IMG/VR virus record: IMGVR_UViG_3300044667_000075
Coordinates: 32,001 to 96,000 of that record
DNA: 64,000 nucleotides
Direction: 5' to 3' (one strand)
Source of the DNA: a virus
Lineage: Duplodnaviria > Caudoviricetes
The notes under the pieces are model-generated. The model was not told the origin of the DNA. It ran no database searches and worked only from the letters and a program-made list of their open reading frames with translations. A program made the position numbers and the translations under genes. Below, in pieces: positions 32,001-40,784 of this stretch (positions are counted from its first letter, which is position 1; the number at the start of each line of letters is the position of its first letter).

Positions 32001-32115
32001 CAGCATGAACACGACTGCCGCCGGGATACGTGATCATGGCCCCCACCTCGGTCTACTGTCAGCGTCAACAACTGACAGCACGCGCCGTGTCACGGCGCGC
32101 GACCAAGGGGGGCTC

Positions 32116-36589: not shown

Positions 36590-36888
36590 ACAGTTTCACC
36601 GGGGCCAAGGCCGCTCTTGACGCGGCCACTGACCAGGCCCTCGCCATCGCCAGGGATAACCGCCGCGACCCGGCCGCAGGACACCTCGCCCCGGCCGTCG
36701 AATGGCTGGCTGACCTGATCGGCGAGCAGTTCCCCGGCAGCCAGGAGATCGCCGGGCGTGTCCTGATGGCCGTCTCGCAGTTCGTCTGCGCCGCCGAGTT
36801 CGACACTCCCGGCATTGATGTCGCCACGATCGGGACCGTGCTCGCGTTCGCCGCCGAGCAGGTCGTCCGGGAAGCGGGGCAGCCGTGA
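36586..36888 (+). CDS. hypothetical protein
   Basis: ATGA overlap. Confidence 0.6.
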   Translation: MNSFTGAKAALDAATDQALAIARDNRRDPAAGHLAPAVEWLADLIGEQFPGSQEIAGRVLMAVSQFVCAAEFDTPGIDVATIGTVLAFAAEQVVREAGQP

Positions 36889-37139
36889 GCACCCTCACCC
36901 GCGTCGTGTTCCTGACCGCCGCCCTGGGTTCCCTCGCCTGGGCCATCCGGGCGATCGCCGCCGCCTTCTCCCGCCGCGCCACCGGGTTCGACGACCACGC
37001 AGAGGACGCCCTCGCCGTCGTCGCGGAACCCGCGGGAGCACCCGAGGACGAAGACGACGAGGAACCGGACGACGCCTTCGACGAGATCATCCGGTTCAAC
37101 TTCATCACCGACGAGCACGCGACGGGGGAAACGCTATGA
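36885..37139 (+). CDS. small membrane protein with acidic tail
   Basis: N-terminal TM. Confidence 0.6.
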   Translation: MSTLTRVVFLTAALGSLAWAIRAIAAAFSRRATGFDDHAEDALAVVAEPAGAPEDEDDEEPDDAFDEIIRFNFITDEHATGETL

Positions 37140-38263
37140 GCGACAACACGGCCATCGAATGGGCCGACACCACCTGGAATCCCGTGCTCGGATGCACCCG
37201 CGTCTCGCCCGGGTGCGATGCCTGCTATGCGATCGCCCAGGCCACCATCCGCGCCGGGAATCCGAGCCCGAAGGTAGCCACCGCGTTCGCCGGGCTGACG
37301 GAACGGCGTGAAGGACGCGCCGACTGGACCGGGCGCGTCAACCTGCTGCCCGAACGGCTGGAGCAGCCGCTGCACTGGCGCAAACCGCGCAAGGTGTTCG
37401 TCAACAGTCTCTCGGACTTGTTCCACGAGGACATTCCCGACGAGTTCATCGCCAGGGTCTTCCTCATCATGACCATGACGCCGCAGCACACATTCCAGGT
37501 GCTCACCAAGCGCCACGGACGCATGCGGTCGCTGCTGAACTCGCCGCGCTTCCACGCCCTGATCGCCGACGTCGCCGAGCGGAACAATGTTCCCCTTGAA
37601 GGCACCCCGTGGCCACTACCTAACGTGTGGCTTGGCGTCAGCGTCGAAACCCAGAAATGGGCTGACGTGCGCATCCCGGCGCTCATCGGCACGCCGGCCA
37701 CTGTCCGGTTCCTGTCTTGCGAACCGCTCCTCGGCCCCGTCGACCTGACCCGGTGGATGCCCGCAGGGGTCGCCCGCTGGCAATGCGGCGGATGCCGGGC
37801 GTTCTTCAGCGGCCCGTGGCAGGAGACGTGCCCTCAATGCGGCCGGACCGGGTACTGGTGCGGCAGCCACACCGGGAACGGCAGGACGGGCGGCCAGCCG
37901 TTGTCCTGGGTGATTGTCGGTGGCGAATCAGGACCCGGCGCTCGGCCGATGCATCCGGCGTGGGCCAGGGCGCTCCGCGAGCAGTGCGATGCCGCCGACG
38001 TCCCGTTCTTTTTCAAGCAGTGGGGCGAATGGGGCCCGAAGAACGCCGCGACGTGGCCGCTCGGGGATGCCTGGCAGAACCAGCAGCGCCACCGCTGGGT
38101 CAGTCCCGACGGCACGCGGACTAAGCCGTTCGGCGAGTTCACCGGTACCGACGACATGGACTGGGCGCTCATGCGGCGCGTCGGCAAGAAGGTTAGCGGT
38201 CGCGAACTGGATGGCCAGGTCTGCGACGAGTTCCCCCTCACCGCTGAGGCGGTGACCGCATGA
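37136..38263 (+). CDS. DUF5131 / phage Gp37Gp68 family protein with Zn-ribbon insertion
   Basis: IEWADTTWNPVLGC..VSPGCDACYA, VNSLSDLFH, SCEPLLG, IVGGESG, FFFKQWG. Confidence 0.9.
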   Translation: MSDNTAIEWADTTWNPVLGCTRVSPGCDACYAIAQATIRAGNPSPKVATAFAGLTERREGRADWTGRVNLLPERLEQPLHWRKPRKVFVNSLSDLFHEDIPDEFIARVFLIMTMTPQHTFQVLTKRHGRMRSLLNSPRFHALIADVAERNNVPLEGTPWPLPNVWLGVSVETQKWADVRIPALIGTPATVRFLSCEPLLGPVDLTRWMPAGVARWQCGGCRAFFSGPWQETCPQCGRTGYWCGSHTGNGRTGGQPLSWVIVGGESGPGARPMHPAWARALREQCDAADVPFFFKQWGEWGPKNAATWPLGDAWQNQQRHRWVSPDGTRTKPFGEFTGTDDMDWALMRRVGKKVSGRELDGQVCDEFPLTAEAVTA

Positions 38264-38400: not shown

Positions 38401-39035
38401 TGTCCCCCGCCAAGACGTCCCCTCCAGGCCCCAGCGCGGCTCTCCCCGTCGCCGCCGCTGCTGCCCGAGGGGACCGCTCCCCGGAGACCCGTCCGCCCGC
38501 ATCCCCCGTAGCGGGCGGGCGGGTCCGGGGAGCCCCACAGACTCCGGCCGGGGTCGGGCGTGAACGCCGTAACCCTGCAAGCGGCGGACGGACCGCGGCA
38601 CCGGCCGGGCAATCCCTCGTCGCAGACCAGATGACCGAAGACCGCGGCCGGGACTCTCTCGAAGCCCACATCCGCAGGCTGATGAAAGATCTTGGCTTGT
38701 GGGGATACCACCCTCGCCGGAGTGAGCGCAGCGAGAAAGGCTGGCCGGACTGGGCGATCATCGGCACCCGGATCATCTACCGCGAGCTCAAGACCGAGCG
38801 CGGCAAGGTGACGCCCGAACAGCAAGCGGTCGGGGAGCGGATCCGGGCGGCGGGCGGAGACTGGGCCGTCTGGAGGCCCCGGCATCTCCTGTCGGGCTGC
38901 ATCGCGCGGGAACTGCAGGCCATCACTCCCGGCCCTCTGGGGCTCGCCCAGCGGAGGCTACCTGAGGACACGCAGGATGCCGCTCCAGGCCCGCAGAGGC
39001 GCGCTGAGACGCGCACAGGCGGCGATGCGGCATGA
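38400..39035 (+). CDS. VRR-NUC nuclease (start may be 38631)
   Basis: GWPD...RELK..RGKVTPEQ. Confidence 0.8.
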   Translation: MSPAKTSPPGPSAALPVAAAAARGDRSPETRPPASPVAGGRVRGAPQTPAGVGRERRNPASGGRTAAPAGQSLVADQMTEDRGRDSLEAHIRRLMKDLGLWGYHPRRSERSEKGWPDWAIIGTRIIYRELKTERGKVTPEQQAVGERIRAAGGDWAVWRPRHLLSGCIARELQAITPGPLGLAQRRLPEDTQDAAPGPQRRAETRTGGDAA

Positions 39036-40784
39036 GGATCGGCAGCGTTTGCAGCGGCTATGAGGGCATCGGCCTCGCCGTCCACGAAGTGCTGGGCGGC
39101 GAGCTCGCCTGGGTCGCGGACAACGATGAGGGGGCCTCGGCCATCCTGGCCCACCGCTTCCCCAGCGTGAAGAACCTCGGGGACATCACGGCCGTGGACT
39201 GGGCTGCGGTCGAACCCGTGGACGTGCTGACGGCAGGTTTCCCCTGCCAGGACGTGTCGCAGGCCGGTGCCCGCGCCGGGCTCCGGGCCGGCACGCGATC
39301 CGGTGTCTGGCTCGAAGTCGTCAAGGCCATCCGCGCGCTGCGCCCGCAGCTGGTCCTGATCGAGAACGTCCGCGGGCTGCTGACCGCTCGTGGCGACGAG
39401 CCTACCCCGGAGCACCTAGCCGCAGAGGCCGCCCGGGACCTGACCGTGAACCTGCTGGACTGGCTGGCGACCGCGGAGGCCGTCGCCAGGTCGAAGGGGG
39501 ATGTGCGACGTGCCAAGCAATGCCGGGCGCGCACCGCTCGCGTCATGGGACTGCGAAAGCGGGCAGTGGCTCGATGCCAGTGGCATGAGCGGCGACTTGT
39601 TCGGGCAATCGGAACCGTTCTCGGGTCGCTGGCCGGTCTCGGGTTCGATGCGGAATGGTGTGTCGTCTCTGCCGCTGAGGCGGGGGCACCGCACAGGCGC
39701 GAGCGGGTATTCATCGCCGCCTGGCCTGCTGCCGACGCCGCGGACTGCGGACGGCCTGAACGAGACCATGGAAGTCACGCGGTCACGGCTGGACGGCGGC
39801 GCGCGGTGGCGGGGGACGATCGAGGAGGCCGTCTCGCTGCTGCCGACCCCGAACGCATCCGATGTGAAGGGGGCGGGTCAGCCACCGGGACGGGTCAGGG
39901 ACGGCCGGGAGCGCCCGGCGTCGGATGCGGACCTGCCGACAGCGGTCTCGCTCTTGCGGACGCCAACGTCGCAGCTGGCGACGAACGGGGGCTCGCAGCA
40001 CCCGGACAAGCGGAAAGCGGGCGGTCATGGGCCGACGCTGGCGGACGAGGTGGAACACCTGCTGCCGACACCTGCGGCAAGGGACTGGAAGTCCGGCCAG
40101 TCAAACATCATGGACCGCAACGCCAGGCCGCTCAACGAGGTCGTGGAGATGACGCTCCTGCCGACGCCGAATGCGACCGACAGCCAGGGCGGCCCGAGAG
40201 CGCTGCCAGAACGCCGGACGAGCCGGGGCAAGGATCACGGGCCGAGACTGCGGGATGTTGCCCCGGTGCTGTTGCCGACGCCGTGCGTGGCGGACGCGGA
40301 AGGCACTCGTGCGACGAGGGGGGGGGGACCGATCCGGCGAGCTACTGCTGACGGGGATAGCGCGGCAGGTATCAACCCTGCTGCCGACCCCGACTGCGAT
40401 GGACTCTCGCGGGTCCAGGAACGCGACCTCGGGCAGGGGCAAGGGGGAAGCGTCGGAGCATCACGACGGGTGGACCCTCATGGACGTGTTCTGGACTGGG
40501 GACCTTACGAGCTCGCCATCCGCCGCTGGGAGCACGCCACCGGCCGCCCCGCGCCACGCCCAACTGAGCCTGGACGAACCGGAGAGCGCCTGAGCCCGGC
40601 CTTTGTCGAATGGATGATGGGTCTCCCTGAGGGATGGGTGACTGACGTGCCGGGGCTGTCCCGCAACGCGCAGCTGAAGGCTTTGGGAAATGGCGTGGTC
40701 CCCGCCCAAGCGGCTATGGCGTTGCGGATCCTGTTGGACCGCGCCGACATCCCGGCCCTTGTCATCACTGAGGAGGTCGCATGA
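39032..40784 (+). CDS. C5 DNA cytosine methyltransferase, frameshifted at G10 (40318-40327)
   Basis: motifs SVCSGYEG, GFPCQD, ENV, HRRERVF, then EWMMG and LGNGVVP in the next frame. Confidence 0.85.
39501..40593 (+). CDS. overprinted LLPTP-repeat protein nested in the MTase gene (start uncertain)
   Basis: seven LL(P/R)TP units in the +1 frame; continuous if one G is removed from G10. Confidence 0.65.

Follow-up and report, generated by a model that had tools for sequence, protein, structure and literature searches.

A dual-frame C5 methyltransferase locus in a phage genome and a homopolymer tract that decides between two gene layouts

Results

Organization of the locus

The DNA examined here is a 64,000-nucleotide stretch (positions 32,001 to 96,000, hereafter the window) of the virus record IMGVR_UViG_3300044667_000075 (Caudoviricetes; 125,263 bp, 69% G+C), which carries a C5 methyltransferase gene whose parts are distributed over overlapping reading frames. 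Frame A opens at the ATG at 39032 and contains CSGYEG (motif I), FPCQ (IV), IENV (VI) and HRRERVFI (VII-VIII) in that order; its product matches PF00145 (E 5e-30), and the family profile matches M.HhaI (E 1e-28). Beyond motif VIII the same frame reads as low-complexity sequence rich in Ala, Gly, Arg, Asp and Pro until it ends in the TGA at 40349-40351. The open stretch of frame B (A+1), 39501 to 40784, encodes six units beginning LL(P/R)TP (starts at 39726, 39837, 39951, 40059, 40155 and 40269), with motifs IX and X, which in relatives align to M.HhaI residues 272-309, further downstream. The seventh unit (start 40378) lies in frame C (A+2), after a run of ten G (G10). The periodicity of G+C at third codon positions (GC3) follows the path A, B, C, B along the gene.

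The set of motifs is that of a C5 methyltransferase, with I, IV, VI and VIII ordered in frame A and IX and X both present, the last two on a different chain from I-VIII. The two open reading frames (ORFs) as written, 39032-40351 (alpha, motifs I-VIII) and 39501-40784 (beta, motifs IX-X), divide the enzyme in the manner of the naturally split M.AquI, so that the split arrangement given in a preliminary description of the window stands. That description had also placed motifs I-VIII in one frame, and their coordinates and frame are reproduced here with the Pfam match; it had placed all seven units in +1, which holds for units 1-6, while unit 7 is in +2 as written. Alpha ends at 40351 and beta at 40784, so beta is not wholly inside alpha as it is in M.EcoHK31I; such nesting is obtained with nine G (G9) only, and it is found in the closest relative (locus L006) and in all 44 loci of the nested class defined below. 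Between the tract and motif IX, frame B is open to the extent expected by chance (40328-40487, P 0.52), and over 40328-40593 GC3 favours frame C, whose product and the end of the nested ORF of L006 (last unit and tail) are homologous. The features of the locus are collected in Table 1.

Table 1. Features of the methyltransferase locus in the window
Feature	Coordinates	Strand	Remarks
Alpha catalytic half, motifs I-VIII	39032..39722	+	Frame A; PF00145; M.HhaI profile match; differences from L006 at A-phase 3
Likely beta start region	39493..39512	+	Shine-Dalgarno-like GAAGGGGGA at 39493-39501, then ATG 39501 and GTG 39510
Beta N-terminal segment (W..SGQW...DLF..PFSGRWPVSGSMRNG)	39510..39725	+	Frame B; overlaps alpha insert and motifs VII-VIII
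Frame-A continuation over the units	39723..40351	+	Low-complexity linker, sequence unconstrained; with G9 would extend into IX/X
Units 1-5 and first half of unit 6	39726..40317	+	Frame B
G10 tract	40318..40327	+	One G more than the G9 reading TRGGDRSGELLL, which joins the halves of unit 6
Second half of unit 6, unit 7, C-terminal tail	40328..40593	+	Frame C; stop 40591-40593; severed from the rest of beta as written
Frame-B read-through as written	40328..40487	+	About 53 codons without homology between the first half of unit 6 and IX/X
DWGPYE helix, motif IX (RLSPAFVEWMMGLP), motif X (GNGVVP)	40488..40784	+	Frame B; phrog_1008 and phrog_10223 matches

The methyltransferase ATG overlaps the stop codon of the upstream gene (ATGA, 39032-39035), and the stop after motifs IX/X overlaps the ATG of the next gene (ATGA, 40781-40784); the overlaps on both sides suggest translational coupling along an operon. 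Further upstream, at 36815-38263, lies a gene of the DUF5131 family (phage Gp37/Gp68-type; Pfam E 7e-96). The match starts at residue 111 of the ORF, and the real start is probably near MSDNTAIEW and not at the listed TTG.

Four layouts among the relatives

Relatives were detected by tblastn in 578 actinophage records, and 160 loci (numbered with the prefix L) were taken from viral contigs and from bacterial genomes, the latter mostly of Streptomyces. The 139 loci that could be classified fall into four layouts: hybrid (60), with one unit in +1 and the others in frame; nested (44), with all units in +1 and motifs I-VIII and IX/X in one open frame; split (26), with the units and IX/X jointly in +1; and single chain (9). 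At least one unit is encoded in +1 in about 130 of the 139, and units in +2 occur in the window only. The layouts are represented in isolated phages: Darolandstone gp38 and Raleigh gp38 are nested and annotated as a single gene, DLane gp65 is hybrid, and the split form, annotated as a gene pair, occurs as ArV1 067a/b, Ovechkin 69/70 and Samy 49/50. The two-frame layout is widespread and mostly unannotated. L006, with 74% identity to the window in the catalytic half and 80% in motifs IX/X, has the frames A, B, A and is nested.

A Megablast search of phage records with the 4-kb region around the gene returned zero matches. Literature searches found no description of the layout of the LLPTP family, nothing relevant for LLPTP with methyltransferase, and nothing on the 067a/b pair for ArV1 with methyltransferase.

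Several individual loci depart from the common patterns. The single-chain relative L096 (1871-3577; metagenome-assembled contig CAITQY010000171.1) has at least four further LLPTP-type units after motif X, a short +1 ORF (2211-2510) with a beta head and one unit, and a G10 run (2554-2563) that is in frame and codes for LGGGS. In L090 (S. tuirus, JAGTPG010000002.1), compared with L091 and L087, two 1-nt deletions in G5 and C5 runs of the universal unit turn the hybrid layout into an apparent split, and may be assembly error or true mutation. L028 (1481-2770) has zero LLPTP units in any frame and about 45 residues between motifs VIII and IX; set beside L024 it looks like a deletion derivative. 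In the distant viral contigs of lower G+C (L054-L083) the units and IX/X are likewise in +1, behind a different beta head (..SG.KC.EL...S..G.L.K.L..SS.W.S), so that the two-frame habit reaches beyond actinobacteria.

Each segment is selected in its own frame

To read selection from frame-A codon phases, nucleotide diversity at phases 1/2/3 was taken from seven nested Streptomyces loci that are 87-97% identical. It is 0.076/0.043/0.183 over motifs I-VIII, 0.192/0.048/0.043 over the units and 0.055/0.038/0.189 over motifs IX/X. The peak at phase 1 over the units indicates that these are selected in +1 and that frame A is free there. The 28 hybrid loci from different Streptomyces species switch to the +1 pattern for exactly one unit (0.27/0.04/0.02) and then back, through a stretch in which the alignment is gapless.

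The window itself shows the same partition when compared with L006. Differences fall at phase 3 of frame A in alpha (0.46 vs 0.22 and 0.18), at phase 3 of frame B in units 3 and 4 (0.47 and 0.28), at phase 3 of frame C in unit 7 (0.53) and again at phase 3 of frame B in IX/X (0.48 vs 0.11 and 0.09). The selected frames are A, B, C, B, identical to the GC3 path, and dual-frame coding, as claimed in the preliminary description, is real. Across homologues, selection acts on frame A over the motifs and on +1 over the units; over the units frame A is unconstrained in sequence. Nor is the nested frame "overprinted" on a variable region that works in frame A, which is free to change there as long as it stays open.

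The openness of frame A was compared with an expectation obtained by shuffling +1-frame codons. Over the units it is stop-free in 35 of 35 nested loci (9.0 expected) and, after collapsing at 80% nucleotide identity, in 24 of 24 clusters (5.7 expected; joint P ~1e-20). The split loci, which serve as the control, have 5.7 frame-A stops per locus against an expected 5.8. In the window there are 0 stops in the 200 frame-A codons before G10 (3.1 expected, P 0.03). That frame A is always open in nested genes means that ribosomes must read it through to motifs IX/X, which favours two products: an outer protein of full length, in which the stretch over the units is an unconstrained tether, and an inner protein made separately.

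These results bear directly on whether the gene is a decaying pseudogene whose open frames are a by-product of 70% G+C. High G+C does keep the frame behind the true one open, and three frames are needed to read the gene as written. However, purifying selection acts on each segment in its own frame, frame A is open far beyond the codon-shuffle expectation, and the same layout is found in viable isolated phages; together these largely refute decay, which we find hardly credible for this locus. The two-frame pattern of the window is neither chance nor decay.

Start and N-terminal head of the beta chain

Nested, hybrid and split forms all possess a +1 N-terminal segment (W..G.W.T...LF..P.S.TWP.SG..R.G) that overlaps motifs VI-VIII. 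Upstream of motif VII the loci of the Darolandstone group show the +1 selection pattern (0.108/0.032/0.038). In the window the head matches phrog_1008, the entry under which this chain is already present in PHROGs; for the nested chain there is no family in Pfam or NCBIfam. A look-up in the ESM Atlas gave methylase and hypothetical clusters only, below 0.9.

The GTG at 39510 in the window and the GTG start of L006 are aligned, each stands behind a Shine-Dalgarno-like purine run, and in L006 GAAAGGAGA followed by GTG has the same spacing to the conserved Trp. In all 28 Streptomyces hybrid loci the beta GTG is invariant behind a Shine-Dalgarno-like GAGGGGAG; it is created in +1 by a glycine codon, GGT, that is rare in Streptomyces and is itself invariant in 28/28 species (L113-like group, locus 2302-2305). 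In the Darolandstone group (L009, L014, L089, L093, L099, L103 and L001; about locus 2470-2476) the beta ATG lies inside the codons of motif VI (GAG AAT GTN, one base later), and the preceding +1 stop arises from GTG ATC, so that the ENV motif doubles as the start of the partner gene.

A programmed recoding event would account for the same frames with a single canonical chain, by shifting to +1 after motif VIII and back again before motif IX. The +1 step does occur at the same place in about 130 loci (AWPAAD in one frame, LLPTP in the other), and the single-chain relatives show that the fused order works. However, inspection shows neither a slippery sequence nor a stall motif, conservation across the return junction is poor (28 loci), two compensating shifts would be needed, or three in the window, and the conserved beta N terminus, its invariant start codon and the avoidance of frame-A stops would be left unexplained. 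Recoding is very unlikely on this evidence.

Consequences and origin of the G10 tract

No homopolymer in the 125-kb genome is longer than the G10 tract; there are 64 runs of length six, 4 of length seven and one each of eight (C8), nine (G9) and ten. As written the tract ends alpha early, at 40351, gives the split-like layout and orphans unit 7. Removal of one G in silico yields a 583-codon frame-A ORF that extends from motif I to motif X and ends at the IX/X stop, together with a 363-codon frame-B ORF containing all seven units, the full-length enzyme and complete nested repeat protein that the preliminary description had foreseen. With G9 unit 6 reads TRGGDRSGELLL, matching RGGDR..ELLL units in eight other loci. 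Judged from its sequence, the window lineage descends from the nested layout.

G10 cannot be regarded as a conserved feature, since RGGDR is encoded in those eight loci with G runs of 2-4 only and L006 has no unit 6 homologue. Among about 155 loci scanned there is one other run of at least eight, in L096, and it is in frame. The tract is not kept up across relatives in the way that a phase-variable switch would be, and a search of three collections (viral, genome and metagenome contigs) for the pattern of tract plus flanking sequence gave no second copy. Unit 7 shows no decay. Together with the absence of frame-A stops before the tract, its integrity implies that the extra G is recent or not real.

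The second of these options is that the additional G arose in sequencing or assembly and that the phage truly has G9 and an ordinary nested pair like that of L006. The homology of unit 6, the jump in GC3 phase exactly at the tract and the selected frames all favour G9, as do the stop-free frame A before the tract (P 0.03) and the undecayed unit 7; the 1-nt deletions of S. tuirus L090, which mimic a change of layout, show that such artefacts or mutations occur in assemblies. Against it, the intergenic G9 and the in-frame C8 break zero genes and give no sign of systematic homopolymer error, a weak test with two runs, and over-calling of a homopolymer by one is less usual than under-calling. We regard an error as quite possible, at rather less than even chances. 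The G9 run lies outside the window (genome 6020-6028), between two minus-strand genes, where it adjoins a Shine-Dalgarno-like site and ATG and breaks no ORF.

The tract could instead be a true slippage-prone switch, with the nested seven-module and split six-module forms both present in the phage population. Its length exceeds that of every other homopolymer in the genome, and its codons (AGG GGG GGG) are unusual where the eight homologous units have GGC, GGT or GGA; both of the resulting layouts occur as stable forms in relatives, and reports on M. tuberculosis glpK provide an actinobacterial precedent for homopolymer variation (10.1101/717272, PMC10334774). However, the tract is unique to the window genome and unconserved, the only other G10 of the family (L096) is in frame, a second copy of the locus was not found in the three collections scanned, and the G10 form contains about 53 junk codons and is not a clean alternative product. 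Phase variation is thus unlikely. A further proposal, that G9/G10 is a selected slippage switch between the seven-module nested and six-module split wirings, which would have different specificities and hedge against the restriction systems of hosts, is less probable still.

The LLPTP units

Units were typed by per-unit searches, single-linkage clustering having lumped all of them through the shared LLPTP motif. They form discrete types that are shared among relatives in differing numbers and orders. The unit 3 type is found in 79 loci (identity up to 97%), the unit 4 type in 67 loci (up to 100%) and the unit 7 type in four relatives, at differing positions; the unit 6 type is usually the last. 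Discrete types in varied number and order fit the cassettes that the preliminary description had proposed.

The assignment of the units as target-recognition domains (TRDs), and with it the multispecificity of the enzyme, is drawn by analogy and is weakly supported. Unit 4 gives a gap-free alignment with the E. coli Dcm TL region (7/17 identical, z 2.5, p 0.027, uncorrected for nine tests) and is the sole unit with even a weak likeness. The variable region was left unaligned in the PDB profile search, and L096 carries units after motif X, which counts against TRDs. Two of the module types are nearly universal, with identities of up to 97-100% between distant phages, a better fit to a core role than to variable specificity. 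We put the chance that the modules contact DNA at about even.

Discussion

A two-chain model for the locus

From the frames, the selection on them and the effect of nine versus ten G on the reading frames, we think it likely that the locus encodes an orphan phage C5 methyltransferase as two overlapping genes, a member of a large family of actinobacterial phages and prophages. The gene structure predicts, as the most likely product, two chains, one catalytic and the other bearing the units and started separately. Frame A would provide the catalytic core (motifs I-VIII). Beta would start within the alpha gene in +1, at GTG 39510 or ATG 39501 behind the Shine-Dalgarno-like site, and would have a conserved N-terminal head some 70 residues long and, behind it, a string of LLPTP modules, each of 32-41 residues. 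In the nested layout frame A would be kept open as an unconstrained tether to IX/X, whereas with G10 beta would comprise six modules, about 53 meaningless codons and IX/X, leaving module 7 orphaned. By analogy with M.EcoHK31I and M.AquI the two chains may assemble in trans, and the probable role of the enzyme is to shield the phage DNA from restriction by the host.

Several observations weigh against the two-chain model. As written, the window does not have the nested arrangement, and this genome may therefore encode an impaired enzyme. Conservation of the beta head is partly a passive echo of motif VII, in which DLAxLGYD read one base later becomes TWPxSGM. An AlphaFold2 (AF2) model of the small nested protein has two hairpins in the head with a predicted local distance difference test (pLDDT) score of 70-83, which is moderate only; for a single-chain relative, AF2 gives pLDDT >90 for the catalytic domain and ~30 for the units, a result that also speaks against the TRD assignment. 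A few single-chain relatives (L013, L007) are without the beta N-terminal gene, which is therefore not universally required. Finally, both chains and their association are predictions from gene sequence.

If the two-chain model is correct, hundreds of phage and prophage methyltransferase genes now annotated as one gene, or as two unexplained overlapping genes, would appear to be a catalytic chain with a hidden +1 partner that gene callers miss. If only the outer frame is translated, the variable region comes out meaningless and would mislead the prediction of specificity. The family also offers a clean natural case of dual coding over the long term, selection on one of the two frames being confined to keeping it open. 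In the window a single G decides between two viable gene layouts, and the length of the tract should therefore be checked before the locus is annotated or expressed.

Comparison with known systems

M.EcoHK31I (E. coli HK31, YGGCCR) is a heterodimeric C5 methyltransferase whose beta chain is encoded in another frame inside the alpha gene; both chains are needed for activity, beta carries motif IX and alpha keeps the TRD (PMC2836561). The present family resembles it in having a second polypeptide in an alternative frame and an open outer frame with the catalytic motifs and motif X. In contrast, the nested chain of the family consists of the LLPTP modules, that is the whole variable region, and a family-specific N terminus, while motif IX stays in the outer frame of the nested relatives and is not supplied by beta. 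Over the overlap the outer frame serves as an unconstrained linker, and the window beta with G10, compared by description only, is not nested and continues to IX/X.

M.AquI is a naturally split C5 methyltransferase with motifs I-VIII on alpha and IX-X on beta. The window as written has the same division (alpha with I-VIII, beta with the variable region and IX/X), as have ArV1 067a/b, Ovechkin 69/70 and Samy 49/50. It differs, again as compared by description, in that the genes overlap by hundreds of bases in different frames and that beta has a dual-coded N terminus and repeated modules. The preliminary description had named both enzymes as analogues, and these are the right ones.

A hidden out-of-frame gene is also known from the mycobacteriophage ShiLan gp65 methylase, where a mobile insertion encodes an HNH homing endonuclease (PMC11855218). 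As in the window family, an actinophage methylase frame is open across a segment that codes for another protein out of frame. The HNH protein, however, is unrelated to methylase function, whereas the nested gene of the family is a vertically conserved part of the enzyme; the ShiLan case is a different phenomenon and was rejected as an explanation.

Homopolymer-tract phase variation is exemplified by phase-variable mod genes. In M. tuberculosis it affects the 7C tract of glpK, according to published reports (10.1101/717272, PMC10334774). The window tract shares with such cases a long G run in the coding region of an actinobacterial replicon and a one-base change that alters the product; it differs in being unconserved, known from a single copy, and in rewiring two overlapping genes rather than turning one on or off.

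With respect to the modules, the closest parallel is found in the multispecific single-chain C5 methyltransferases of the Bacillus phages SPR, phi3T, rho11s and H2, in which tandem TRDs have been assigned experimentally. In both, motifs VIII and IX are separated by short modules in tandem, which come in discrete types and in varied number and order. The TRDs of the Bacillus enzymes are assigned, whereas the modules of the window, known from sequence, are without a confident fold.

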